64,000 nt of DNA. Source: an uncultured Bacilli bacterium. Its GTDB lineage: Bacteria; Bacillota_I; Bacilli_A; RF39; UBA660. Of the stretch, positions 2,705-53,540 are shown piece by piece (the first letter of the stretch is position 1; every line of letters starts with the position of its first letter). Location of the stretch: assembly GCA_947626595.1 (NCBI GenBank), contig CANQST010000001.1:1076-65075 (forward strand), written 5' to 3'. The position numbers and the translations under genes were made by a program. The notes beneath the pieces were generated by a model, which had not been told where the DNA came from, did no database searches, and worked only from the letters and a program-made list of their open reading frames with translations.

Positions 2705-4060
2705 ATGAATAAAAGAATAGTATCTTTCTTAATAATTTTTTTATCAGTTTCTCTTGTTGTTTTAAGAAGTAGTGATTTTTTTAAAGAAAAGGAAAAAGTT
2801 CATAAGATAACGGGAATAGTTTTAAATAAGGAAAAAGATAAGGTCCTTTTTAAGACTAGTAATGGTACTTATACTTTTAAGTCTACTGATAATTTTTCTA
2901 TTGGAGATAATATTATAGTAGAATATACGGGGCTTTTAAATACTAATAGAAATATACAAGATATAAAAGTAGTTAATACTCTTCAAACTAGTGAAGAAAC
3001 TGATAGTAATAATATTCCTCTTTCTTGGTTAGATAATGGTATTTTTAAAGATTATTATGTTTTAGCTAAGAAGAAGTTAGAAGAGTTATCTTTAGAGGAA
3101 AAAATTAATCAACTTTTACTAGTAAAATATAGTTCTAAAGCTAAAGAAGATTTAGAAGAAAGAGCTTTTTCAGGTTTTGTTTTTTATGAAAATGATTTTA
3201 AAGATAAAACTAAGGAAGAAGTTATTTCTAATATGGATAGTTTAAATGAAAAATCTAAAATACCTCTTTTAATGGCAGTTGACGAAGAGGGAGGAGAAGT
3301 TGTTAGGGTAAGTAGTAATAAAAATTTGGTATCTACACCTTTTTTATCACCTAGTGAGCTTTATCAAAAGGGTGGGTTTAAGGAAATTGAAAAAGATACT
3401 ATTAATAAGAGTAATATTTTGAATAGTTTAAAGATAAATGTTAATTTAGCACCGGTAGTAGATGTTTCTAATAGTGATGAGGATTATATTTATGAGAGAA
3501 CTTTAAAAGAAGATACTTCTAAAGTTTCAGAGTTTGCGAAGACCGTTATAAAAGCTAGTAAAAATACTGGCGTATCTTATACTTTGAAACATTTTCCTGG
3601 TTATGGTAATAATGAGGATACGCATACTTCTAGTAGTACAGATATGAGATCTTTAGAATTGATTAAAGAAAGAGATATTCCACCTTTTAAAGAAGGTATT
3701 GCTGCGGGAGCAGAAGCTATTTTAGTAAGTCATAATATTGTTAATAGTATAGATAGTGAAAATCCATCTTCATTATCTGTCAAAGTCCATGAAATGTTAC
3801 GTAAAGATTTACAATTTAGTGGTATTGTTATTAGTGACGATATGGAAATGAAAGCTTTATCTGGAATAGAAGATAGTATTACGAAAGCTATAAGTAGTGG
3901 TAATGATTTAATAATAGTTGGAGATTATGCTAAAGCTTTTGAGGAAATAAAAAAATCATTAGAGGAAAAGAAGATAAGTAATAATTTAATTGATAGAGCG
4001 GTATTTAGAGTATTAGCTTGGAAATATTATAAGGGGTTATTTTTTGAAAAACATAAGTAA
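2705..4060 (+). CDS. membrane-anchored glycoside hydrolase family 3 (NagZ-like beta-N-acetylhexosaminidase)
   Basis: N-terminal TM segment, KHFPGYG motif typical of GH3/NagZ, D-rich catalytic region. Confidence 0.7.
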   Translation: MNKRIVSFLIIFLSVSLVVLRSSDFFKEKEKVHKITGIVLNKEKDKVLFKTSNGTYTFKSTDNFSIGDNIIVEYTGLLNTNRNIQDIKVVNTLQTSEETDSNNIPLSWLDNGIFKDYYVLAKKKLEELSLEEKINQLLLVKYSSKAKEDLEERAFSGFVFYENDFKDKTKEEVISNMDSLNEKSKIPLLMAVDEEGGEVVRVSSNKNLVSTPFLSPSELYQKGGFKEIEKDTINKSNILNSLKINVNLAPVVDVSNSDEDYIYERTLKEDTSKVSEFAKTVIKASKNTGVSYTLKHFPGYGNNEDTHTSSSTDMRSLELIKERDIPPFKEGIAAGAEAILVSHNIVNSIDSENPSSLSVKVHEMLRKDLQFSGIVISDDMEMKALSGIEDSITKAISSGNDLIIVGDYAKAFEEIKKSLEEKKISNNLIDRAVFRVLAWKYYKGLFFEKHK

Positions 4061-4090: not shown

Positions 4091-4119
4091 TTGACATGGT
4101 AAAACTTTTGTACTATAAT
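4091..4119 (+). promoter_or_regulatory. sigma-A promoter, TTGACA-17-TATAAT (perfect consensus)
   Basis: ttgacatggtaaaacttttgtactataat read directly from the sequence. Confidence 0.6.
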
Positions 4120-4141
4120 TGGTATGTAAGCAAAAAAAAGC

Positions 4142-4170
4142 TTGTCAAATAGGGCAATTTATGGTATAAT
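4142..4170 (+). promoter_or_regulatory. second sigma-A promoter, TTGTCA-17-TATAAT
   Basis: ttgtcaaatagggcaatttatggtataat, 51 bp downstream of the first promoter and ~25 bp before the RBS gaggggg. Confidence 0.6.
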
Positions 4171-4195
4171 ATGTACCAATTAAGTGAGGGGGATT

Positions 4196-5704
4196 ATGAA
4201 AATGAAATCACTAAAAAAAGTAACTAAAATACTATTAATTATGTTGCTTTCTTTAACAACTTTTGTTGAAACAGATTTTACGGCTAAAGCAGCTGAAAAA
4301 CAAATAGTTCTTGGTGAGTTGGAAGTTTTACCAAGATATATTGCCGGCGTTTTAATAGATGCCAAGAAGACAACAAGTGGACAATATGTTTACTGTGTTG
4401 ATAATAGTAAGGAGACTGCTAAGAATACAACAGCTAATCTAGTAGGAGAAGCTAATGCTGGCGTTACGGCTATTTTAAATAATGCTTATCCTGTAAAGAG
4501 TATAACTGGTGATAAGGCAAAGGATTATTACATTACTCAAGCTGCTATTTGGTGGTATTTGGATGATGTAACAGGTAGTTCTAACTTGGGTTCACAATTT
4601 AAAGAAACAGGAGCTGATCCACAAAATTTAAGAAGTTATATTAAAAATCTTGTTAATGTTGGAAAAAGTGGAAGTACAACTTATCAAACTGTTTTAACTT
4701 TGGGTACAAGTGATACTAATATGAATTTAAAAAGTGGTTATTATGTATCAAATGCTTTAAAGGCAACAAGTGTTTCTAATATTAATAGTTATACTGTTAG
4801 TTTACAAAATGCTCCAAGTGGTAGTGAAGTTTTCAATTCTAAAGGAGAAATTACTAATACTATTGCTTCTAATGATAGTTTTTATGTAAGAGTTCCTGTT
4901 AGTAAAGTAGAAAGTGCATCATTAACTATTGGTGTTACTATTACTGGTAAGAGCGCAATTAAGAAGGCTTATGTTTATCGACCTGTTAATGGTATGCAAG
5001 ATGTAACTTTATTGGAAGAAGAGACAAAATCTTCTAGTATAAATCTTACTTTAGCAACTTCTAAAGTAACAATTGTTAAAGTAGATGGTAAAACTAATAA
5101 ACCTTTAGCAGGAGCTAAATTAGTTTTAATGGACGCTAGTGGAAAAGAAATAACATCTTGGACTTCAACAGTTAATGGTCATGTTATTAGAAATTTAAAA
5201 GATGGTGAATATATTCTTAAAGAAGTATCTGCACCAAAAGGTTATAAATTAAATTCTAAACAACTTAAGTTTACTGTTGATAGTAAAAATAGAGATATTA
5301 AAATAAAAGTAGTTAATGAACCTAATGAAGTGGTTGTTAATATTACTAAGATAGATGCATCTACTAATAATCCATTAAGTGGAGCTATCTTAGTAGTAAA
5401 AGATGCTGATGGTAATATTGTTGCTCGTTTTACAAGTACTGATAAATCATATACTATTACTGATTTAGCTTATGGAACATATACTGTTGAGGAAGAAAAG
5501 GCACCTGCTGGTTATAAAGCTAGTGAGGAAAAAATAACATTTACTATTGATGAAGATCATTTATCACATCAAATAATGTTTGAAAATTATCCAGAGGTTG
5601 TTGTACCAGATACATCTTCTAGTTCATTACTATTTAGTTTATTAGGTATTAGCTTAATTGGTTTAGGAATTAGATTTGTATATAAAAATGGAAAGAAAGC
5701 TTAG
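4196..5704 (+). CDS. thioester-domain surface adhesin (TIE-protein-like) with Cna-B/SpaA isopeptide domains and C-terminal sorting signal
   Basis: Signal peptide. Cys in YVYCVD plus the TQAAIWWY thioester motif. Two prealbumin-like Cna-B repeats (GAKLVLMDASGKEI..., GAILVVKDADGNIV...). C-terminus VPDTS followed by a hydrophobic stretch and KNGKKA. Start could be 4184 (GTG), 4196 or 4202. Confidence 0.8.
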   Translation: MKMKSLKKVTKILLIMLLSLTTFVETDFTAKAAEKQIVLGELEVLPRYIAGVLIDAKKTTSGQYVYCVDNSKETAKNTTANLVGEANAGVTAILNNAYPVKSITGDKAKDYYITQAAIWWYLDDVTGSSNLGSQFKETGADPQNLRSYIKNLVNVGKSGSTTYQTVLTLGTSDTNMNLKSGYYVSNALKATSVSNINSYTVSLQNAPSGSEVFNSKGEITNTIASNDSFYVRVPVSKVESASLTIGVTITGKSAIKKAYVYRPVNGMQDVTLLEEETKSSSINLTLATSKVTIVKVDGKTNKPLAGAKLVLMDASGKEITSWTSTVNGHVIRNLKDGEYILKEVSAPKGYKLNSKQLKFTVDSKNRDIKIKVVNEPNEVVVNITKIDASTNNPLSGAILVVKDADGNIVARFTSTDKSYTITDLAYGTYTVEEEKAPAGYKASEEKITFTIDEDHLSHQIMFENYPEVVVPDTSSSSLLFSLLGISLIGLGIRFVYKNGKKA

Positions 5705-6326
5705 TTACATAAAAAAGAACTCTTCATTAGTGGCCTTAATAGGTAGCTTAATTACATTAATTGGAGGGTTCTTTCTTTCTTATAATTATATTCAGACTAA
5801 GAAAATGATAGCTTTTGATTATATGAATAATGCTATTTATGATGGTAGTGAAATAATTATAGAAACTGATAATCCTACATTAAATCTAGATAATAATTTA
5901 CCTGCTGAAGTTAGCAATGATTATATAGGATATTTGTCAATACCTAAGATAAACTTGAAGAAAGGTTTTCTTGATTTACGTTCTAGTGAAAATGATGTTG
6001 ATAAGAATATTCTTGTTGTTAAGGGTTCAACTTATCCTGATGTTGATAAGGGTAATTTGATAATAGCTGGACATTCTGGTACTGGTTGGAAAGCTTTTTT
6101 CAATGATTTATATAAACTAAATAAAAATGATTTAGTATATGTTTCTTATAAAGATAAAAAGTATACTTATAAAATTACTAATATTTATAAACAAGAAAAG
6201 ACAGGAACTGTTGCGATATATCGTGATTATGATAAAACAACACTTACTTTAATTACTTGTACGAACTTCGATACTAAGAGTCAAACAATCTATATTTCAG
6301 AATTAATTAGTGTCGAAGAAGAATAA
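5688..6326 (+). CDS. sortase (cysteine transpeptidase)
   Basis: N-terminal TM anchor, LIIAGHSG (catalytic His), TLITCT (catalytic Cys). Overlaps the end of the adhesin gene. No Arg visible in the expected position after the Cys. Confidence 0.75.
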   Translation: MERKLSYIKKNSSLVALIGSLITLIGGFFLSYNYIQTKKMIAFDYMNNAIYDGSEIIIETDNPTLNLDNNLPAEVSNDYIGYLSIPKINLKKGFLDLRSSENDVDKNILVVKGSTYPDVDKGNLIIAGHSGTGWKAFFNDLYKLNKNDLVYVSYKDKKYTYKITNIYKQEKTGTVAIYRDYDKTTLTLITCTNFDTKSQTIYISELISVEEE

Positions 6327-6350: not shown

Positions 6351-7232
6351 ATGGAAAAATTGTCGTTACTAGAAAAATTACAAATACTACTAAAAGTAAG
6401 TAAAAATTCTAAGTTATTTATTGTATTAATAATTTTTCTAATCTTTTTAGCTTATATATTATTTTCTACAAATAAGAAGAATAAGAAAACAACTAAGAGT
6501 ATTTTTGTCTTAATATATACCTTTATCTTCTTATTTATAGTTATAACTTATCATTCTTCTTTTGGAAAAATGTTTGATTATTTAATGAATAATTTATTTA
6601 TTATATTTTATTTTCCTAATTTAGCTATTTATCTTGTAGCGATTATAATTACTAATGTAATTGTATGGAAGAGTGTTTTTAGTGAAAAAATAGTTAAGTT
6701 TATTAAGTATCTTAATATTACTATTTTTTGTATTTTAAATTATTTACTTGCTTTGATATTAAGTGTTATTACTAGTAATAATTTAGATATATATACAGTA
6801 AGTTCTGTTTATAGTAATAAAAATGCTTTAGGTTTAATTGAATTATCAAGTACTATTTTTGTAGTTTGGGTAGTTTTCCTAATCGTTTATAAAATATATT
6901 TTACTTATCTAAATAAAGGTAAAAAGGTTTTGATGGAAAGAAAGTTACCTGATAATATAAGAGAAACTAGTATTCCTAGTAGTGTTAGATATGTTAAGAA
7001 TAAGAACTATAATATAAAAAATACATTAGAAGTAGAGAAAATAGAGAAGACTTTAACTTTAGAAGATTATAAATTATTATTAAATATGTTGAAAGAGAAA
7101 GAAAAAGTTGATTTATTTACTCACAATGATTTTTACAATGAACCTGAAATTATTGAGACTAAAAATATTGAAAGTGTTAAGGAACAGTCTATTTTTGAAG
7201 AATTAAAAGCTTTATATGATATTAATGAATAG
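6351..7232 (+). CDS. polytopic membrane protein, unknown function
   Basis: 293 aa, multiple hydrophobic helices, 24 bp downstream of the sortase gene. Confidence 0.45.
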   Translation: MEKLSLLEKLQILLKVSKNSKLFIVLIIFLIFLAYILFSTNKKNKKTTKSIFVLIYTFIFLFIVITYHSSFGKMFDYLMNNLFIIFYFPNLAIYLVAIIITNVIVWKSVFSEKIVKFIKYLNITIFCILNYLLALILSVITSNNLDIYTVSSVYSNKNALGLIELSSTIFVVWVVFLIVYKIYFTYLNKGKKVLMERKLPDNIRETSIPSSVRYVKNKNYNIKNTLEVEKIEKTLTLEDYKLLLNMLKEKEKVDLFTHNDFYNEPEIIETKNIESVKEQSIFEELKALYDINE

Positions 7233-7278: not shown

Positions 7279-7305
7279 TTAGCACTTTCACTTGACAAGT
7301 GCTAA
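7279..7305 (+). promoter_or_regulatory. CIRCE (HrcA operator) inverted repeat TTAGCACTT-N9-AAGTGCTAA
   Basis: ttagcactttcacttgacaagtgctaa matches the CIRCE consensus TTAGCACTC-N9-GAGTGCTAA. It overlaps a TTGACA-17-TATATT promoter (7292-7320) directly upstream of hsp20. Confidence 0.75.
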
Positions 7306-7350
7306 AAATAGGTGTATATTATAGTTGTAATGAAAGGAAGATGATTAATT

Positions 7351-7734
7351 ATGAATTTAATCCCAAGAAATTTTTATCTAGACGATGTCTTTGATAATGC
7401 TAATGTAAACATTATGAAAAGTGATATCTATGAAAAAGGTGGTGTTTATCACATTGAAATGGAAATGCCAGGTTTTTCTAAAGAAGATATCAAGATAGAA
7501 ACAAAGGATGGGTATGTTACTATTAAAGCAACTAAGAAAGAAGTTTTAGACGAGGGTGATGAGAGTAAAAATTATCTTCGTCGTGAAAGAAGTTTTGGTG
7601 AATATGAGAGAAGTTTTTATTTAGGAGATTTTGATACTGATAAGGTTGAAGCTTCTTTCAAAGGTGGTATTCTAGAAGTAGTAGTACCTAAAAAAGAAGA
7701 ACAAGATAATAAGAAAACAATTGAAATTAAATAG
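7351..7734 (+). CDS. small heat-shock protein, Hsp20/alpha-crystallin family
   Basis: 127 aa with the alpha-crystallin domain signature (…GVYHIEMEMPGF…GILEVVVPK). Confidence 0.9.
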   Translation: MNLIPRNFYLDDVFDNANVNIMKSDIYEKGGVYHIEMEMPGFSKEDIKIETKDGYVTIKATKKEVLDEGDESKNYLRRERSFGEYERSFYLGDFDTDKVEASFKGGILEVVVPKKEEQDNKKTIEIK

Positions 7735-7794: not shown

Positions 7795-9981
7795 TTGGTT
7801 AGAGTGGTGAAGTTAGTAAATACTTATTTTGCTTTAAGTGCTTTGATTTTGAATATTATTTTAATTATCTTTTTTTATAATAAAAAGATAGATAGTAAGA
7901 AATACTTAAGATTACTACTATTTGGAATAGGAGAAGCAATATTTAATTTAGTAATAAATGTTTCTTTAATTAGAAATGGTTTTACATTGGAATTACTAAC
8001 TAAAATTAGCTATCTTTTACAAATTATTTTCTTAGACCTTTTGTTTTCCTATGTATATTCTCTTACTTCTAAGAGAAGTATACTTAAAGATATTATTTGT
8101 TATGGTGTTTCGACATTGTTTATTACTTTAATTATTGTTATGCCATTAAAAAAATCTTTAGTGGGGTTAGCAGATACTTTTTTACTTATTGGTTCTAGTT
8201 TCTTTATTGTTATGAGTTTGATTTATAGTTTAAAATATCTAATAAAAGATAAAGATAAAGCTAATTCTAGTTATTTATTATTTATTTTATTTGGATTAGT
8301 TCTTATATCTAAGTATATTAATGTTTTTTCTAATATAGGTTCTTATATGTATTCTCTTATTTTATTAGTTATTTTTATAGTTTTTGAAAATAATGATATA
8401 AAAACTATTAAGAAGTTAGAAAAGGCTAAAGAGAAAATTTCTAAAGAAAGTAAAAATAAAATGCAATTTATAACAGATTTATCTACGAGTATAAAAGAAC
8501 CTCTTGATAATATAGTTAATTTAAGTGAAGAAATTGAAAAAGAAGAAAGTTTAGATAAAGTAAAGGAAAGTACTAGGAATATAGTTAAAGAAGTAAATAC
8601 TTTAGAGGAAATAGTTAGTGGTGTTTTAGATATTTCTAGGATAAATACTGGTAATTTTGAAATTAAAAATGAACTCTATAATCCTAAGGATAAGTTTTTA
8701 GAGTTAGCTTTAAAGATGCAGGAGAAAATGAATGGTAAAGATATAGAGTTTTCATATAATATTGATCCATGTCTTCCAGAGCATTTATGTGGTGATTATT
8801 TGAATATAGAAAAAATAGTTGTTAATCTATTGAGTAATGCTTATAAGTATACAGATAGTGGTTATATTCATTTTGACGTTAGTGCGGTAGTTAATAATGG
8901 AATGTGTCGTTTGGTTATTTTTGTGGAAGATACAGGTAAGGGAATAAAGAGCGAAGATGTTGATAAATTATTTGATAAGTTAGATAATACTGATACAAAG
9001 TCTACGCCAATTAAAGGAACAGGAGTTGGATTGGCACTTACAAAAGAGTTAGTTGAAATGATGGGTGGAAAAATAATTGTTCATACTATTTATGGAGAAG
9101 GTTCAAAATTTAGTGTTGTTATTAATCAACAAGTAATAAATGAAGTAGGAAGTTCAATTAATCCTAATGGTTATAATGATATTTCTTGTTCTAATATGAG
9201 GGTAGTGGTAGTTGATGATGATGAGGTTAATTTAAAAGTAATTCAAAAACTTTTAGAGAGATTTTCTCTTACTGATGTTTTGCTTTTTAATAATACTTTG
9301 TCTTTAACATCAAAAATGAAAGAGAATTATAAATGTGATTTTATTTTACTTGATACAATAATGCCTAATGTGTCTTATGAAAAAGTTATTAAAGAATTAA
9401 GAGAAATACCGGACTTTGATATTCCAGTAGTAGCGCTAGTACCAAACTTTTCTAATGAAGAAAAGGATAAATATATAGAAAAGGGCTTTTTTGATGTACT
9501 AGGTAAACCTACTAAGAAGGAAGATTTAGTTGAGCTTCTTAATAAGATAAAGGAAAAAGCTAATAATATAGAAGATTTAGAAGTAGGAAAAAGTATTGTT
9601 GAACCACCTGCTATTGGTGATGTAGATTACTTAAAAAGTAGGGGTGTAGATATAGATAAATCTTTAGAGTTATTAGGTGATATGGAAATGTATAATGATA
9701 CTATAAAGGATTTTTTGAGTGAAGTAGAAGAAAAGTGGATGCGTATTGAGAGGTATAAATTAGAAGGTGATATGGAAAATTACGCTATTGATGTTCATTC
9801 ATTGAAGAGTGATGCTAAGTACTTGGGCTTTATGAAATTAGCTGATTTAAGTTATCAACATGAATTGTCTAGTAAGGCTAAAGATACTAACTTTATTGAT
9901 AAGAACTTTTCTATTTTAGAGGAAGAATTTAATAAAGTATTGAATATTGCTAAGGACTATGTGGAAAGATATTTAAAATAA
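7795..9981 (+). CDS. hybrid sensor histidine kinase (multi-TM sensor, HisKA-HATPase, receiver, Hpt)
   Basis: ~7 N-terminal TM helices, HATPase motifs (NLLSNAYKYT, GTGVGLAL), receiver domain (VVVVDDDEVN…LLDTIMP), C-terminal Hpt-like HSLKSDAKYLG. TTG start. Confidence 0.8.
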   Translation: MVRVVKLVNTYFALSALILNIILIIFFYNKKIDSKKYLRLLLFGIGEAIFNLVINVSLIRNGFTLELLTKISYLLQIIFLDLLFSYVYSLTSKRSILKDIICYGVSTLFITLIIVMPLKKSLVGLADTFLLIGSSFFIVMSLIYSLKYLIKDKDKANSSYLLFILFGLVLISKYINVFSNIGSYMYSLILLVIFIVFENNDIKTIKKLEKAKEKISKESKNKMQFITDLSTSIKEPLDNIVNLSEEIEKEESLDKVKESTRNIVKEVNTLEEIVSGVLDISRINTGNFEIKNELYNPKDKFLELALKMQEKMNGKDIEFSYNIDPCLPEHLCGDYLNIEKIVVNLLSNAYKYTDSGYIHFDVSAVVNNGMCRLVIFVEDTGKGIKSEDVDKLFDKLDNTDTKSTPIKGTGVGLALTKELVEMMGGKIIVHTIYGEGSKFSVVINQQVINEVGSSINPNGYNDISCSNMRVVVVDDDEVNLKVIQKLLERFSLTDVLLFNNTLSLTSKMKENYKCDFILLDTIMPNVSYEKVIKELREIPDFDIPVVALVPNFSNEEKDKYIEKGFFDVLGKPTKKEDLVELLNKIKEKANNIEDLEVGKSIVEPPAIGDVDYLKSRGVDIDKSLELLGDMEMYNDTIKDFLSEVEEKWMRIERYKLEGDMENYAIDVHSLKSDAKYLGFMKLADLSYQHELSSKAKDTNFIDKNFSILEEEFNKVLNIAKDYVERYLK

Positions 9982-10035: not shown

Positions 10036-11190
10036 ATGGAAAGCGAAGTAATACTTGACGATAAAAATATTATAGTTATGAAATTATTACATTATTTTAT
10101 TACGGAAAAGAACTATAATCCCATCATTTTACAGGGTGTACAAAATGAAATTTGGTTAGAAAACTTAGACGAAGATGTTAAGGTTATTAGAATAGTTTCA
10201 GGTTATATTCATAATGATGAGCAATTTAGGTTTGATGTTTTTAAGACAAAGAGGATTTTAAAGAAGATAAAGAAGAAAACTTTTTCTTTTAATATTAATG
10301 TCTTTAGTTTCTTTTTAAATATGGGAGATAATGTTACTAATGAATTGAGTGATGGTTCTAAATTTTTAGCAGTAAATGCTCAAAATGAAGCTGCTATTAA
10401 GAAGGATCCTTTAGTTACTAAGACTTTTCCTGATTTAAAGAAAAATCTTACTTTTCATGAAAAGGGTGTTGAACTATTTATGAAAATAACTAAGGATATT
10501 AATGAACATAATATAAAAGACGCTAATAAGATGGAAAAAATATTTAGTAATAAGTATCCATTTGTTACTTATTTGCTTATTGCGATTAATGTTATATGTT
10601 TTATTGTGCCAATACTTTTTGGACAGTATGATAAGTTAATAGCGATGTTTTGTATTCATGGGCCTAGTATAAGGGCAGGGCAAATTTATCGTTTGTTGAC
10701 GGGAATTTTTCTTCATGGTGGTATTATGCATTTAGCTTTTAACTGTTATGCTTTATATGTTATAGGTAGTCAACTAGAAAGTTTAATGGGAAAATTTAAG
10801 TATATAATTATTTATTTGTTTTCTGGTATAACAGGGGCTTTATTTTCAATGACCTTTGGTGGCAGTTATGCATCAATTGGGGCCAGTGGAGCAATATTTG
10901 GATTAATGGGCTCATTACTTTATTTTGGTTATCATTATCGAGTATTTTTAGGCAATGTTGTTAAATCACAAATTCTTCCTTTAATAGTTATTAACTTAGT
11001 TTTAGGATTTATGATGAGTGGTGTTGATAATTTTGCTCATATTGGTGGTTTAATTGGAGGAGCTTTAGTTACTGTAGCTTTAGGTGTTAAAGAAAAAAGT
11101 AGTCTTTTTGAAATGATTAATGGTTGGATAGTAACAATTATTTTCTTGATATTTACTTATTATATGGCTTTTGTCTTAGCGGGAAGATAA
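10036..11190 (+). CDS. rhomboid-family intramembrane serine protease with N-terminal cytoplasmic extension
   Basis: GASGAIFGLMG (catalytic Ser), HLAFN, AHIGGLIGG (His). Confidence 0.8.
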   Translation: MESEVILDDKNIIVMKLLHYFITEKNYNPIILQGVQNEIWLENLDEDVKVIRIVSGYIHNDEQFRFDVFKTKRILKKIKKKTFSFNINVFSFFLNMGDNVTNELSDGSKFLAVNAQNEAAIKKDPLVTKTFPDLKKNLTFHEKGVELFMKITKDINEHNIKDANKMEKIFSNKYPFVTYLLIAINVICFIVPILFGQYDKLIAMFCIHGPSIRAGQIYRLLTGIFLHGGIMHLAFNCYALYVIGSQLESLMGKFKYIIIYLFSGITGALFSMTFGGSYASIGASGAIFGLMGSLLYFGYHYRVFLGNVVKSQILPLIVINLVLGFMMSGVDNFAHIGGLIGGALVTVALGVKEKSSLFEMINGWIVTIIFLIFTYYMAFVLAGR

Positions 11191-30644: not shown

Positions 30645-30708
30645 TTTACAATGTAAGGAATAGTGGTGTAAAATATAAGTATATAGTAGGGGATATTTGG
30701 AGGTATTT

Positions 30709-33207
30709 ATGAGGTCAAAAAGAGGTTTTACTTTAGTTGAGTTAATTGTCGCAGTATCTATTATGTCAATAATAGTAATTTTAGCTATTCCCTCAATTGG
30801 AGCAATTCAAAAAAGAAATGCTTTAAAGAGGTATGAAAATTATGGAGAGACAGTTCTTACTAGTGGAAAGCTTTATACTGATAGTAATGAAATAGATATG
30901 TTTGGTTATGATAGTGATGGTTGCTATGACATAAGTTTTGAGAAAATGTTTTATAAAAAATTACTAAAAGATATAGACTATAAAGATGTAACTTGTGCCG
31001 ATAATGAAACTAAAAAGACTTTTGTAAGAGTTAAAAAGCTAGATGGTAATATAAGATATCAACTTTCTATTAGATGTATTGATGGAAGTAATAAGGAAGT
31101 TTATTATGAACCTATAAAAAATCCAATATGTGCTGGAGAAAAATCTCATGAAGGACCTAAGGTAGTAGTAAGTCCTAAGAATACTAGTGGAGTATATAAA
31201 AGTGAAAATGAAAGTTATAAAGTAAGTATAACAGTAAAAGATGATGATGGATTACTTGAAAATAATGAGTTACAGTATTCATGGTGTAAGACAGCTAACT
31301 GTAGTGATGTTACAAGTTATACTACTTTAAGATTTGAAAATAAAAGAGATGTAAAGTCAGCTAGTAAGAAAATAAAAAGACCTAAGGGTGATGGAGTATA
31401 TTATTTAAAGATACATCCAACAGTGGTAGTAGATGTCTTTAATAACGCTACTCATGATGATGCGATATATGGACCATATAATTTTGATACAACACCTCCT
31501 ATTGTAATAGTAAATGCTTATGTAAATGGAACTCAAACTAAGGTTACAGCTGCTGTTATTAGTAGTAGAAAGGTTAAAGGAAAAGAAGATAACCTGATAG
31601 CTTATCAAACGGGAAATATAAATTATAATGATTATCAGAAATTATATAGTAATAAATGGGCTAATAAAGCTAACTTTCCAAGTGGAATATATTATGAGGT
31701 TACTTATAAAGATGATGATGCTTATAAGTTAGGAGTTAAAGGCTCAGGAATAAAAAGCATTGTTTGGAAAGAAAATGAAAGTGATAAAACAACTGGTGGC
31801 GAAGTAAAAGGAAATACGAAATTACCTATTAATGCTAATGGAAAAAGTGGAGCGGCACTAAATAAAGATGGGCATAGAAAAGGTCAAATAACAGTTACTG
31901 ATAATGCTGGAAATTATGTTGTAGTGAATGTTGAAGCATACATTGATTTAACGCTTCCAGGATGTAAAAGTAGTGGTGGAAAAGACGAGTGGATTAATGC
32001 TGCAAGTAATCCAGGATATCGCACAGTAACAGGAACGTGTAGTGATGCTATGAGTGGCTGTGTAGATAAAACTGTTAAATATGATTATAAAGACGATATC
32101 AATACAACGACGGCTGGACCACAAAAAAATGTAAAGGATTATGCTGGTAATGAAAATTCTTGTCCTAATGACCAGATAGTTAAAATAGATAAGACTGCTC
32201 CTACATGTACATCAAATGCTAATTATACTAGTAAGAGCGCAAAAGGATGGTTGAATGCTAGTGATAAAAATGGAAAAGTAACAGTATCTGCTACATGCAG
32301 TGATCCTGGCGCTTATGCAAGTGGATGTAAATCAGTACCAAATTCATTAGTATATTCAACCGATATGAATGAAAAGATAAGTCCTGGAACTGTTTATGAC
32401 AATGCTAATAATTCTACGAAATGTGGAGAAGTAGCGGTTAAAATAGATAAGACAAAACCTACAATATCTTTGACAAGACGTAAATATTCTTCTTATACTA
32501 GTGGTAGTGGTTGTTCAGGAAGAGATATGGGTGCATACCCTAATAATACTTGGACAAACGATCAGTGTGTAAAGGTAACTGCTAGTTTTGAAGATAATTT
32601 GAGTGGAATAGATACTAAAGTATATAGTAGAACTGGTTTTTCAGAAGACAAAACGAATGTGTCTGTTTCTAATCCTCACAGTGTATCTAAGCGAAAAGAA
32701 AGTTCAAGTACCATAACTTATAATATAACAGATAAGGCTGGTAATTCTGCCAGTGCAACTGCTAAAGTAAAATTGGATAGAACAAAGCCTACTTGCTCTA
32801 TATCTGATGCTAGAGCTGGTACGTATAGTGTTGCTTTTAAAGTAAATTGTTCTGATAGTGGAGGTAGCCATTTAACTAATTGCGCTGGTGCTAGTTATAG
32901 TGATAAAAAGAATTCTAAAAGTGTAAATAAGGACGAAAATAGTAGCAAAACTTTTTATGTTAATGATGCGGCAGGAAACTCTAATTCTTGTTCAGTAACA
33001 ATATATCATAATGCAAATCCAGTATGCGGTTCTTATGATTGTAGTGAAAGCTATAGCATGACTGATACTAATGGATGTCCAGAAGTTGCTTGTGCTTGTT
33101 ATGAGTGTAAGGATGGGTATAATTTGAGTTATAATTATGATAACCCAATGTGTTATATGACTTGTACAAAACCGAAGACATGTAATTATACTTGTTATCA
33201 TACATAG
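30709..33207 (+). CDS. giant modular type IV pilin-like protein (class III signal peptide, repeat domains, Cys-rich tail)
   Basis: RBS ggagg. N-terminus MRSKRGFTLVELIVAVSIMSIIVILAIP is a prepilin leader with G-1/F+1/E+5. Four ~95-aa repeats, each beginning xDxTxPT[CI]. C-terminal 60 aa contain 14 Cys. Confidence 0.7.
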   Translation: MRSKRGFTLVELIVAVSIMSIIVILAIPSIGAIQKRNALKRYENYGETVLTSGKLYTDSNEIDMFGYDSDGCYDISFEKMFYKKLLKDIDYKDVTCADNETKKTFVRVKKLDGNIRYQLSIRCIDGSNKEVYYEPIKNPICAGEKSHEGPKVVVSPKNTSGVYKSENESYKVSITVKDDDGLLENNELQYSWCKTANCSDVTSYTTLRFENKRDVKSASKKIKRPKGDGVYYLKIHPTVVVDVFNNATHDDAIYGPYNFDTTPPIVIVNAYVNGTQTKVTAAVISSRKVKGKEDNLIAYQTGNINYNDYQKLYSNKWANKANFPSGIYYEVTYKDDDAYKLGVKGSGIKSIVWKENESDKTTGGEVKGNTKLPINANGKSGAALNKDGHRKGQITVTDNAGNYVVVNVEAYIDLTLPGCKSSGGKDEWINAASNPGYRTVTGTCSDAMSGCVDKTVKYDYKDDINTTTAGPQKNVKDYAGNENSCPNDQIVKIDKTAPTCTSNANYTSKSAKGWLNASDKNGKVTVSATCSDPGAYASGCKSVPNSLVYSTDMNEKISPGTVYDNANNSTKCGEVAVKIDKTKPTISLTRRKYSSYTSGSGCSGRDMGAYPNNTWTNDQCVKVTASFEDNLSGIDTKVYSRTGFSEDKTNVSVSNPHSVSKRKESSSTITYNITDKAGNSASATAKVKLDRTKPTCSISDARAGTYSVAFKVNCSDSGGSHLTNCAGASYSDKKNSKSVNKDENSSKTFYVNDAAGNSNSCSVTIYHNANPVCGSYDCSESYSMTDTNGCPEVACACYECKDGYNLSYNYDNPMCYMTCTKPKTCNYTCYHT

Positions 33208-45829: not shown

Positions 45830-45916
45830 TTAAAAAAGATATAAATATGGAAAAAGAAACTTTCATTTTCCATATTTTTTTGGTATACTGTAAAGTAGGA
45901 ATAGAGGGTGTTTAAA

Positions 45917-47872
45917 ATGCTAGGAACAATTAAGGAAATAATTGATAATACGGTTATTATTAAGCTTAGTATTGATATTAACGAACAGCCTAATCTTATT
46001 AATATTCATGTTGTTTTTGACGATGGTTCTCATAGAAAAGTAGTTGGAGAGATTGCGAATGTTAATCAACATGAAATGGTTGTTAATATAGTAGGAGAAA
46101 TTGATAATAATAGTTTTATACCTGGTTCTAGTTCTAAACCGTCTTTTAAATCAAATATTAGAATAATTGATGCTAGCGAGTTACAGTTATTACTTGGACC
46201 TCAAGAAGTAGGAGAGGGTAAGACTAATTTTGGAACTAGTAATGTTTATGAGGGATATAAGATAAATATTGAAGTAAATGATTTTTTTAATACGCATTTT
46301 GCTATACTAGGAAATAGTGGTGCTGGTAAAAGTTGTACGGTTGCATCTATTTTGCAAAAATTGTTTACTAGTAGTAAGACACCACCAATTAATTCTAATC
46401 TTTTCTTTTTTGATGCTTATGGTGAATATACGAATGCTTTTAGTAAATTACATGAGGTAAATCCTTTATTAAATTATAAAACTTATACTACTAATACTGT
46501 TGATCCAGAATGTGATATATTAAGAATACCACCATGGTTACTTGATGTTGACGATTTGGCTTTATTATTAGATGTTACTACACCATCACAAATTCCAATG
46601 ATTGAAAAGACCCTTAAATTAGTTCCTATTTTGACTGGTAGTAGTGAGAATGTTATTAAAAGAAAAAATGATATAATTGCTAGGGCATTACAAGATATTC
46701 TTTTATCAGGAAATGACTCCACGAAGATAAGGGACCAAGTAATAGGTGTTTTAACAAAATTTAATACACCAACTTTAAACTTAGAGACGCAAATAGTTCA
46801 ACCTGGTTATACAAGAACTTTTAAACAATGTTTATTTGTTGATAAAAGTGGTAAGATGCAAGAGATGGAATTAGTCGTAGAATTTGTTAGAGGCTATATT
46901 CTAGAAGTAACAGAAGAAATTCCACAGGATGAGTTAAATCCTTATTATACTTTGACTGATTTGGAGTCTGCTATGGAGTTTGCTTTAATTAGTGAAGGTA
47001 TTTTAAAGAGTGATAAAGTTTTTGATTATGCTAATATTATAAGCGTTAGACTACATACTTTAGCAACAGGAGATTATAAGTCATATTTTGAATATCCTAC
47101 TTTTGTTAATAGAGACCAGTATATTGAAGATTTAATGACTAATGAAAATAATCAGAAGTGTCAAATAGTTAATTTTAATATCAATTATATTGATGACCGT
47201 TTAGCTAAAGTATTTACTAAAATATTATCACGAATGCTTTTTTTGAAATCTAGTACGACTAAGCCTCGTGGTAGTAGAGCATTTCATATAATAATAGAAG
47301 AGGCCCATCGTTATGTTCAACATGATAGTGATGTAGAGATACTTGGTTATAATATCTTTGAAAGAATTACTAAAGAGGGACGTAAATATGGAACTTTCTT
47401 AGCTCTTATTACGCAAAGACCTAGTGAGTTGTCTGATACTTGTATTTCACAATGTGCTAATTTTATTGTTTTAAGAACATTACATCCAGTTGATTTAAAT
47501 TATATAAAAGAGATGGTACCTAATGTTACTTCAGAAGTTGTATTGCAATTAAAGAACTTAAAACCAGGTAACTGTATTGCCTTTGGTTCAGCTTTTAAAG
47601 TACCTATTCCAATGTATATTGATTTGCCTAATCCAAGACCTTTGAGTAATAATGTTGATTTAAATACGGTTTGGTATAGACAAATATCTTCACCGGGAGC
47701 AAGAGAAATATTACCAGGAGTTAATCCTAATTTAGCACCTAGTCCTGTTAGTCAAATGCCAGTTGCTCCTCAAGCAGCAGTACAGGGACAAGTTCAAGCT
47801 TTGCCGGTACAACAACAAATGGCATATGCTCAGGCACAAGCTCAAGCTCAGCCTGGACAAGTAGCAGCATAA
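45917..47872 (+). CDS. HerA/FtsK-superfamily ATPase with N-terminal HAS-barrel and Q/A-rich C-terminal tail
   Basis: N-terminal HAS-barrel-like region. Walker A GNSGAGKS, Walker B HIIIEEAHRYV, LITQRPSEL (HerA-type motif). C-terminus PQAAVQGQVQALPVQQQMAYAQAQAQAQPGQVAA. Confidence 0.7.
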   Translation: MLGTIKEIIDNTVIIKLSIDINEQPNLINIHVVFDDGSHRKVVGEIANVNQHEMVVNIVGEIDNNSFIPGSSSKPSFKSNIRIIDASELQLLLGPQEVGEGKTNFGTSNVYEGYKINIEVNDFFNTHFAILGNSGAGKSCTVASILQKLFTSSKTPPINSNLFFFDAYGEYTNAFSKLHEVNPLLNYKTYTTNTVDPECDILRIPPWLLDVDDLALLLDVTTPSQIPMIEKTLKLVPILTGSSENVIKRKNDIIARALQDILLSGNDSTKIRDQVIGVLTKFNTPTLNLETQIVQPGYTRTFKQCLFVDKSGKMQEMELVVEFVRGYILEVTEEIPQDELNPYYTLTDLESAMEFALISEGILKSDKVFDYANIISVRLHTLATGDYKSYFEYPTFVNRDQYIEDLMTNENNQKCQIVNFNINYIDDRLAKVFTKILSRMLFLKSSTTKPRGSRAFHIIIEEAHRYVQHDSDVEILGYNIFERITKEGRKYGTFLALITQRPSELSDTCISQCANFIVLRTLHPVDLNYIKEMVPNVTSEVVLQLKNLKPGNCIAFGSAFKVPIPMYIDLPNPRPLSNNVDLNTVWYRQISSPGAREILPGVNPNLAPSPVSQMPVAPQAAVQGQVQALPVQQQMAYAQAQAQAQPGQVAA

Positions 47873-52343: not shown

Positions 52344-53540
52344 ATGAAACGTATACTTATGAATAAAAATGTAGAAGTTTTGGTTGTTGAATATGATACG
52401 GCAACAGGAGTTTTTAATAGTATATATGAAGTTAAAAATATTGATTATGCACCATATATTTTAAAAAGTTTTTATAAAGAAAATGATATTAATGACACTT
52501 TCTTTAGAAGTAGTTTGAGTGAATGGTTTAAAGATAGAGGTATTCCTTCATGGCGTGATAAGTTAGATTTATTATTACATAGATTAAATATAACAGCGCC
52601 TTATGAACTTTTAGATAAGGCATTTGGATTATCTTTATCAGATCAGTATTGGCTAAAGCCTTTTGATAGTGATATTAAATATAATGATATTAACTTTTTT
52701 GATAATGACTTTGATTACGCTGAATTTATGGAGGCTTCATTATCAACTAATAGTAAAATAATAACTAAAGAGGCATCTTTGAAAACACCTAATAATACTA
52801 CAGATGGAATGCTTCAAAAAGCTTGGATTATTGATAATGGGGTAAGATACTTATTAAAGGGTGGATACAAAAATGAAACTTTACAACCATTTAATGAAGT
52901 ATTAGCTAGTGAGATATGTGAAAGATTAGGATTTAATCATGTAAAATATACAATAGATACATATAAAGATAAAGTTGTTTCTAAGTGTCCATGTTTTATA
53001 ACAAAAGATACGGAGTTAGTTACATGCTACCAAATAAAAAATGATATGAACAGGCATGATAGTGTAGAAGATTATAATGAATATATTAGGAAATTAGAAG
53101 ATAATGGAATAGAAAGTGCTAGAGAAAAAGTAGAAAATATGTATATTCTAGATTTCCTTATCATGAATGAAGATAGGCATTTAAACAATTTTGGAATTAT
53201 AAGGGATGTTAATACTTTAAAATGGTTAGATGTTGCGCCTATATTTGATAATGGACAAAGTTTAAATATTGAGTATTATGACGAAGAGGAATTACATATT
53301 TCTGGAGAAGGAAGATTGTTTTATGAGATAAAGCCTTTTGACGAAATAATAAAGGTAGTTAAGAATTTAAAAAGAATTGATATAGAAGAATTAGATGGTA
53401 TAGTAGAGTGGTTTGATAATTTATTACATAAATATCAGCATTTAACTCATTATTCTGATATGAGAATTAATAGATTATGTACTTTACTTAATAGACAGAT
53501 TAACAAGTTAAAGGAATTAATAGAAAAAGAAAACACTTAA
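52344..53540 (+). CDS. HipA-like Ser/Thr kinase domain protein (orphan, no HipB partner)
   Basis: ILDFLIMNEDRHLNNFGII matches the HipA catalytic loop (…GNxDxHxKNfS…). APIFDNG matches HipA (L)APAYD. Confidence 0.6.
   Translation: MKRILMNKNVEVLVVEYDTATGVFNSIYEVKNIDYAPYILKSFYKENDINDTFFRSSLSEWFKDRGIPSWRDKLDLLLHRLNITAPYELLDKAFGLSLSDQYWLKPFDSDIKYNDINFFDNDFDYAEFMEASLSTNSKIITKEASLKTPNNTTDGMLQKAWIIDNGVRYLLKGGYKNETLQPFNEVLASEICERLGFNHVKYTIDTYKDKVVSKCPCFITKDTELVTCYQIKNDMNRHDSVEDYNEYIRKLEDNGIESAREKVENMYILDFLIMNEDRHLNNFGIIRDVNTLKWLDVAPIFDNGQSLNIEYYDEEELHISGEGRLFYEIKPFDEIIKVVKNLKRIDIEELDGIVEWFDNLLHKYQHLTHYSDMRINRLCTLLNRQINKLKELIEKENT

Follow-up and report, generated by a model that had tools for sequence, protein, structure and literature searches.

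A predicted His-Cys-Gln sortase family paired with thioester adhesins bearing V-P-x-T sorting signals in uncultured gut Bacilli

The described sortases share a His-Cys-Arg triad, whose arginine in strand beta8 is held to be strictly conserved in all sortases, and the universality of the triad, together with a requirement of the Arg for catalysis, has been restated up to 2026 (PMC3019223, PMC13257024). Among the systems closest to the one described here, the class D sortase YhcS of Bacillus subtilis acts on LPDTS and LPDTA signals, LPDTS being that of YhcR, and the class C sortase SrtC-3 of Streptococcus pneumoniae has a substrate, RrgC, with the signal VPDTG (PMC11231552). The class B pilus sortase Spy0129 of Streptococcus pyogenes is dedicated to a thioester adhesin, Cpa, which carries the Val-Pro signal VPPTG (PMC3019223). 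We analysed a 64-kb stretch of chromosomal DNA (27% GC; contig CANQST010000001.1) from an uncultured Bacilli bacterium of the order RF39, referred to below as the window, in which three co-directional, tightly packed genes for an adhesin, a sortase and a membrane protein lie 3' of a 135-bp spacer (Table 1). The sortase fails one defining feature of its superfamily, the beta8 Arg of the triad. A first-pass annotation of the window had remarked on the missing Arg at this one locus; judged by sequence, the observation is real and broader than a single locus, being a trait of a large sortase family in which an invariant glutamine stands at the Arg position.

That the second gene encodes a true sortase is indicated by its sequence as well as by its predicted fold. 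Its product scores 74.6 bits against PF04203 (MEROPS C60; cutoff 26.6) and 64.6 bits against the general model TIGR01076 sortase_fam (cutoff 39.35). The AlphaFold2 (AF2) model, with a predicted local distance difference test (pLDDT) of 90 and a predicted template modelling score (pTM) of 0.80, forms the eight-stranded sortase beta-barrel, and a Foldseek search against the PDB gives nothing but sortases among its top 50 matches (probability 1.0; TM, normalised on the target, about 0.76-0.79). His129 (AGHSG) and Cys191 (TLITC) align by hhalign to His120 and Cys184 of Staphylococcus aureus SrtA, in agreement with the first-pass annotation, which had recognised a dedicated downstream sortase with both residues. 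No class-specific NCBIfam cutoff is reached, the scores against cutoffs being 64.8/160 for class C, 55/140 for SrtD, 50.7/165 for class D, 40/160 for class E, 31.5/166 for class F and 27.9/158 for class GN. The nearest proteins in PLSDB are annotated class D sortases, canonical ones at 30-40% identity; named or cultured members of the family were sought there and canonical class D sortases only were found. The source names of family members give the generic 'sortase' only, and cluster look-ups yielded no names either.

After Cys191 the sortase reads TNFDTKSQTIYISELISVEEE, which holds no Arg. The same is true of 120 close homologs (64-100% identity), all of which match TL[IV]TCTN.D..[ST]QT[IV]YI[AS]EL. 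An exhaustive HMMER search over 1.84 billion cluster representatives returned 2,506 matches, and Arg is missing in every one of the best 150 of these (50%-identity representatives, reaching about 37% identity and an E-value of 1e-28), the common pattern being TLxTC, a loop of 5-9 residues and Q-[TILV]-[VI]-[YFVI]-[IV]. What, then, stands where the arginine should be? The family profile pairs kQivyiaeLv with KRYVVAGDLV of Bacillus anthracis SrtA, which sets Gln199 opposite the Arg. In an offset test, each candidate register was scored over the eight residues that follow it, against the S. aureus and B. anthracis SrtA sequences (the numbering of the former checked through H120, C184 and R197); the Q-to-R register scored 6.6-7.0 and all other offsets at most 0.5 with both references. 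In accordance, Gln199 lies near the start of beta8 in the AF2 model, the place at which the Arg of known sortases sits (PMC3019223, PMC11231552). The hhalign alignment with S. aureus SrtA ends before beta8 and thus does not cover the Arg position. Single-sequence phmmer alignments had made Thr200 the Arg equivalent; this was rejected, as Gln199 is favoured by the offset test, by hmmalign and by the profile of the family, and Thr200 varies outside the RF39 clade.

Conservation at position 199 is close to complete: among 132 full-length 50%-identity representatives it is Gln in 130, Asn in one and a gap in one, so that 250 of the 252 family members examined (the close homologs and these representatives) carry Gln. 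When 49 diverse members are aligned, only nine columns are invariant, position 199 and N102, P117, H129, G131, F138, Y161, G173 and C191. The Asn member, P0146, reads ..STRENTIYIAEL and has an Arg three residues before the Asn. No conserved Lys or Arg occurs between Cys191 and Gln199, in the beta7/beta8 loop, in the 120 close homologs and the 150 representatives. By alignment and by model, an invariant Gln fills the beta8 Arg position across the whole of this sortase family. The absence of the Arg, which the first-pass annotation had proposed to check by alignment with other sortases, thus holds family-wide, with no displacement to a nearby basic residue; the impression it left that nothing takes the place of the Arg does not hold, as Gln199 occupies the position. 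Nor does the clade carry a basic residue there, such as the Lys that the annotation had named as the finding that would speak against it.

Could the function of the Arg have moved elsewhere in the fold? Two family-specific residues of the beta6/beta7 region may act as helpers or as substitutes: Arg179 (IYRDY), with 111 Arg and 11 Lys among the 132 representatives (92% basic), and Lys171 (KTG), with Lys in 128 (97%). The aligned positions of canonical sortases are not basic, S. aureus SrtA bearing E171 and P163, and in known sortases the beta6/beta7 loop walls the substrate groove on one side (PMC11231552). A relocation of the Arg function to Arg179 or Lys171, with Gln199 kept for structure only, is nevertheless unlikely in our judgement. 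Unlike Gln199, neither residue is invariant (N, A or C stands at 179 in some members), and the exception at position 199 is Asn, likewise an amide. Arg98, the other Arg that is invariant in the RF39 clade, was considered as a displaced catalytic Arg and rejected, being N, D or E elsewhere and so not conserved outside that clade.

The gene directly 5' of the sortase encodes a secreted adhesin. Its likeliest start is the ATG at 4202, 9 nt past the Shine-Dalgarno sequence GAGGGGG (4186-4192), with alternative starts at 4196 and 4184, and a signal peptide is predicted at about residues 1-30, ending between AKA and AE. The thioester pair would be formed by Cys65 in YVYCVDN (codon 4394-4396) and Gln113 in TQAAIWWY (codon 4538-4540). 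The top solved relative is BaTIE of B. anthracis (6fwv, E 5.5e-35), with thioester and CnaB domains aligned; TIGR03934 TQXA scores 22.5, under its cutoff of 30.4. The Pfam TED match, the two PF17802 matches and the BaTIE match bear out the first-pass annotation's proposal of a covalent TIE-like adhesin with a Cys...TQAAIWWY signature and two CnaB domains. As read from its sequence, the C-terminus is a classical tripartite wall-sorting signal, and VPDTS is the sole xPxTx motif with a hydrophobic stretch and then a basic tail behind it among the open reading frames (ORFs) of the window, barring a chance match internal to FtsW. A YPKN-type pilin motif was looked for in the adhesin and is absent.

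The pairing of adhesin and sortase recurs well beyond the window. Relatives of the sortase occur in at least 322 GTDB species genomes (one genome per species scanned), which are labelled as uncultured Bacilli, Mollicutes, Tenericutes, Mycoplasmatota or Candidatus Faecimonas and which we read as gut RF39-type lineages; the best 80 loci of the 322 genomes were analysed. The adhesin gene lies directly 5' of the sortase in 79 of these 80 RF39-type loci, the exception being a locus that ends there. Likewise, in a distant branch taken from metagenomes, at 35-40% identity to the window sortase, a substrate gene lies directly upstream in 63 of the 64 loci with upstream sequence. The signal is V-P-[D/N]-T-x in all 78 distinct RF39-type sequences, with A, S, N, G, D or K at position 5, and V-P-x-T in all 41 distinct sequences of the distant branch, mostly EVP[N/S]TG with a helix and a Lys-rich tail behind it. 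Taken together, 119 of 119 distinct cognate signals share the same Val, Pro and Thr. Every substrate run through Pfam, in both branches, is a thioester adhesin with TED and CnaB domains; four from the distant branch have 820-1130 residues, with a thioester domain and 5-8 CnaB domains.

Across the 1.7 Mb of fetched DNA (window and loci), VPxT-type signals are essentially limited to the cognate genes, one extra being found in L029, and a second, canonical sortase was looked for in the same DNA and not found. The best reading of these sequences is a sortase family that has specialised in thioester (TIE) adhesins carrying V-P-x-T signals. VPDTS, the only plausible signal in the window and one whose VP[D/N]T core recurs in all 78 distinct RF39-type orthologs, is thereby upheld as the true sorting motif. 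Its description as non-canonical needs tempering, for LPDTS and VPDTG are known and VPDTS is only mildly unusual; the distinctive part is the family-wide invariant Val at position 1. A few other possible sortase substrates were seen in RF39-type loci, namely a 1,011-residue ORF in L003 (1-3033) with NPNTN, a helix and a basic tail, class B-like, a 330-residue ORF in L057 (11981-12970) with IPDTG, and the second VPNTA protein of L029 (11128-12237); no second sortase was seen in those three loci.

We consider it probable, at roughly 0.7, that the three genes form a conserved operon in which a dedicated His-Cys-Gln sortase, active and belonging to a family not described before, serves the adhesin, the activity and the role of Gln199 being predictions. 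In the mechanism that we infer, the adhesin would be exported through Sec by its signal peptide and retained in the membrane by its C-terminal helix and basic tail. The membrane-anchored sortase would cleave VPDTS between Thr471 and Ser472 through nucleophilic attack by Cys191, His129 serving as acid/base, and the acyl-enzyme would be resolved by the amine of a peptidoglycan precursor, leaving the adhesin fixed to the wall. The side-chain amide of Gln199 would give the hydrogen bonds of the Arg to the scissile carbonyl or oxyanion and to the P1 Thr, and Arg179 and Lys171 may assist it. Once anchored, the adhesin would, by homology, bond covalently through its Cys65-Gln113 thioester to a target amine. 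Papain offers a parallel, its Cys25-His159 pair being assisted by the side-chain amide of Gln19 in the oxyanion hole; the analogy with papain-family proteases is mechanistic only, their fold is unrelated to that of sortases, and no homology is claimed. Frankel and colleagues (Biochemistry 2007) are said to have found that SrtA keeps much of its activity when Arg197 is replaced by citrulline, a result that would lend plausibility to Gln as an uncharged donor of hydrogen bonds. The roles ascribed to the sortase Arg are substrate orientation and oxyanion stabilisation (PMC3019223).

Several points weigh against such a mechanism. S. aureus SrtA needs its Arg for efficient catalysis (Marraffini 2004, as far as it is cited in PMC11231552), and a Gln enzyme might be slow or use another mechanism. 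In the model, beta7 and beta8 form a tight hairpin, which could leave the Cys and Gln199 several residues apart along the strand, and Arg179, basic in 92% of representatives, could be the true functional replacement. The acceptor is uncertain because peptidoglycan synthesis in RF39 is predicted to be incomplete; the same source predicts that RF39 mostly possess peptidoglycan and a wall (PMC10868615), and FtsW/RodA is encoded in the window. Incomplete wall synthesis would also suit a sortase that is active without anchoring to peptidoglycan, and that instead polymerises the adhesin, uses another acceptor (perhaps with the 293-residue protein of the third gene) or releases the adhesin by hydrolysis. 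The closest sequence models are those of class C, the pilin polymerases, and an obligatory membrane partner is unusual. We find this alternative quite improbable: the adhesin bears no YPKN-type pilin motif, the sortase has neither the class C lid nor a C-terminal anchor, there is one substrate gene per locus, and the mobile branch, which is without the membrane partner, still keeps the sortase-substrate pair. The pilus hypothesis was rejected on the missing pilin motif, the missing lid and the single substrate.

A catalytically dead relic, retained as a chaperone or retention factor, would be suggested by a single fact, the loss of a residue reported to be essential in SrtA. His, Cys, TLxTC, Gln and the substrate P-x-T show no variation in hundreds of species and on mobile elements, and a dead active site would not conserve them; we therefore regard a pseudo-enzyme as highly improbable and retain the active His-Cys-Gln sortase as the preferred reading.

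How does this family compare with the known classes? In architecture and in the PDTS part of the signal it appears closest to class D. Like B. subtilis YhcS and Clostridium perfringens SrtD, the window sortase is small, has a single N-terminal anchor and no lid, and is encoded beside one substrate; VPDTS is identical to the LPDTS of YhcR save at position 1 (PMC11231552), and C. perfringens SrtD (PDB 4d70, E 5e-16) is among the best sequence matches. Unlike class D, the family has Gln for Arg, an invariant Val at signal position 1 and thioester adhesins as substrates, and the NCBIfam class D models give 51-55 bits against cutoffs of 140-165. With the class C pilus sortases, whose pilins bear V/I/Y-P-x-T-G signals, it shares an operon-linked substrate, the best class model (64.8 bits), the best PDB sequence match (24rr, Ebp SrtC) and, through RrgC, a VPDT signal. 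It differs from them in lacking the lid, the C-terminal anchor and the Arg, in a substrate devoid of a pilin motif, and in a score far under 160; class C traits were sought in the sortase, and neither a lid nor a helix or hydrophobic segment after beta8 was found, the protein ending at residue 212. Spy0129 is likewise a dedicated sortase for a thioester adhesin with a Val-Pro signal, but unlike the window family it keeps its triad, Cys221-His126-Arg229, on a class B fold with extra helices (PMC3019223). The motifs of its substrates differ in the placement of Pro, V-P-P-T-G in Cpa and E-V-P-T-G in the pilin Spy0128.

The adhesin has the architecture of the class II TIE adhesins (BaTIE 6fwv, SaTIE, EfmTIE86 and the TIE of pLS20). 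Unlike the window adhesin, BaTIE-type proteins bear LPXTG and use canonical sortases, and the pLS20 TIE has neither a sorting signal nor a sortase, whereas the window adhesin has a VPxT signal and a private Gln-type sortase. The searchable literature on Arg-less sortases, RF39 sortases and VPxT motifs, a search with subscription journals mostly outside it, gave no description of the family. The new element is the Arg-to-Gln family with its invariant Val specificity; taken by itself, the sorting motif departs only modestly from known ones.

In the RF39-type loci the cassette is chromosomal and syntenic. The third gene, for a 293-residue membrane protein, lies directly 3' of the sortase in 80 of 80 loci, at 38-61% identity, with the conserved motifs MFDYMMNNLFIxIYFPNLAIY and LIELSSTIF..W. 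Its product has no match in Pfam or NCBIfam, its AF2 model (pLDDT 75) has no fold match in the PDB, and none of its 372 homologs bears a name. A gene for an ABC transporter substrate-binding protein (NMT1 family) lies upstream of the cassette in 49 of the 80 loci. Between this gene and the adhesin the window has a GH3 gene (2705-4060, +) for a membrane-anchored, NagZ-like beta-N-acetylhexosaminidase, which, among 80 related loci, is found at this spot only in the window genome and in L001, and so looks like a lineage-specific insertion beside the cassette.

The distant branch (loci L081-L165) has no gene for the 293-residue protein. The core of its element runs in the order ParA, ParB, a 233-residue ORF, adhesin, sortase, two small ORFs, a 2,598-residue SNF2/ResIII helicase and DpnD/PcfM (for example 4651-20657 in L161), with left flanks that vary among contigs. 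Another member, L127, carries a MobA/VirD2 relaxase by Pfam, and an ORF resembling a single-stranded DNA-binding protein was noted by eye only. One 90% cluster holds 1,650 member sequences, and a single protein has entries in 484 collection blocks. These gene contents place the branch on conjugative-type mobile elements that are very abundant in gut metagenomes. The class II thioester adhesin of plasmid pLS20 promotes mating-pair formation in conjugation (PMC8092201). The setting of the TIE adhesin and sortase on these elements fits that role, and by analogy the mobile cassette is likely a mating-adhesin module on gut conjugative elements.

Transcription of the cassette was the subject of a further proposal of the first-pass annotation, that two perfect or near-perfect sigma-A promoters upstream imply strong or dual regulation. 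Both promoters are present: P1 is the sole perfect sigma-A consensus match in the 64 kb (12/12), P2 matches at 11/12 with an extended -10 element, and two of the six window matches with at most one mismatch fall inside the 135-bp spacer. Among 77 orthologous upstream regions of RF39-type loci, about 70 have an element TTGxxA-17-TGnTATAAT at 40-60 nt 5' of the point where the adhesin begins, which makes P2 the conserved one of the two promoters. In about 30 of the 77 an additional TATAAT element, a weaker one, lies 50-70 bp farther upstream, and the counterparts of P1, such as TTTCCA-17-TATAAT at -95 to -128, are weaker; by this comparison the perfect-consensus P1 is specific to the window genome. 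Transcription would most likely start from P2, reinforced in the window genome by P1. Two strong promoters are thus borne out in sequence, and dual regulation as a general property of the cassette is not, because only P2 is conserved among species.

Table 1. Predicted features of the adhesin-sortase cassette, in window coordinates.
Feature	Position	Strand	Details
Distal promoter P1	4091..4119	+	sigma-A-type, TTGACA-17-TATAAT, 12/12
Proximal promoter P2	4142..4170	+	TTGTCA-17-TGgTATAAT, 11/12, extended -10
TIE-type adhesin, coding sequence	4202..5704	+	500 aa, secreted; ORF 4184..5704
Thioester domain (Pfam TED, PF08341)	4388..4657	+	E 7.9e-11
Two SpaA/CnaB-type (prealbumin-like) stalk domains	5063..5551	+	PF17802, two stretches, E 6.2e-40
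Cell-wall sorting signal	5603..5701	+	VPDTS 5603-5617; 22-residue hydrophobic helix 5618-5683; KNGKKA 5684-5701
Dedicated sortase	5688..6326	+	212 aa; 17-nt overlap with adhesin stop
Sortase N-terminal membrane anchor (single helix)	5724-5792	+	within 5688..6326
Sortase active-site codons	His129 6072-6074; Cys191 6258-6260; Gln199 6282-6284	+	
Third gene, polytopic membrane protein	6351..7232	+	293 aa, about 5 transmembrane helices and a charged C-terminal helical region

Some neighbouring genes deserve mention. A further near-consensus promoter, TTGACA-17-TATATT (11/12, 7292-7320, +), stands directly 5' of an Hsp20/alpha-crystallin gene (7351-7734, +), which is followed by genes for a hybrid histidine kinase (7795-9981) and a rhomboid protease (10036-11190). 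Farther on, 30697-33207 (+) encodes an 836-residue protein whose N-terminus bears a prepilin-type N-methylation motif (PF07963); type IV pilin-like proteins are not usually this large. A HerA/DUF87-type ATPase (45908-47872, +) and a HipA_C-domain kinase-like protein (52344-53540, +) may be related to defence or toxin functions.

Whether these enzymes form a seventh sortase class, with a His-Cys-Gln (rarely Asn) active site and strict V-P-x-T recognition on thioester adhesins, spread by mobile elements and fixed in RF39 as a core cassette with a recruited membrane protein, is a proposal to which we give even odds. Under this proposal, conjugative elements of gut Firmicutes would spread the cassette as a mating or attachment module, and in the uncultured order RF39 it would have become fixed as a core chromosomal adhesin module that recruited a new membrane protein. 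If the enzyme is active, sortases can do without their 'essential' Arg, and the sortase and its signal would make an orthogonal sortase-tag pair for protein engineering, the strict V-P-x-T specificity being one that could serve as an orthogonal ligation tool. Regardless, a natural Gln family makes the debated role of the Arg directly testable, as hydrogen-bond donor versus charge and in the oxyanion hole versus substrate positioning. For RF39, a prevalent uncultured lineage of the human and animal gut, the cassette as predicted here defines the main covalent adhesin system.

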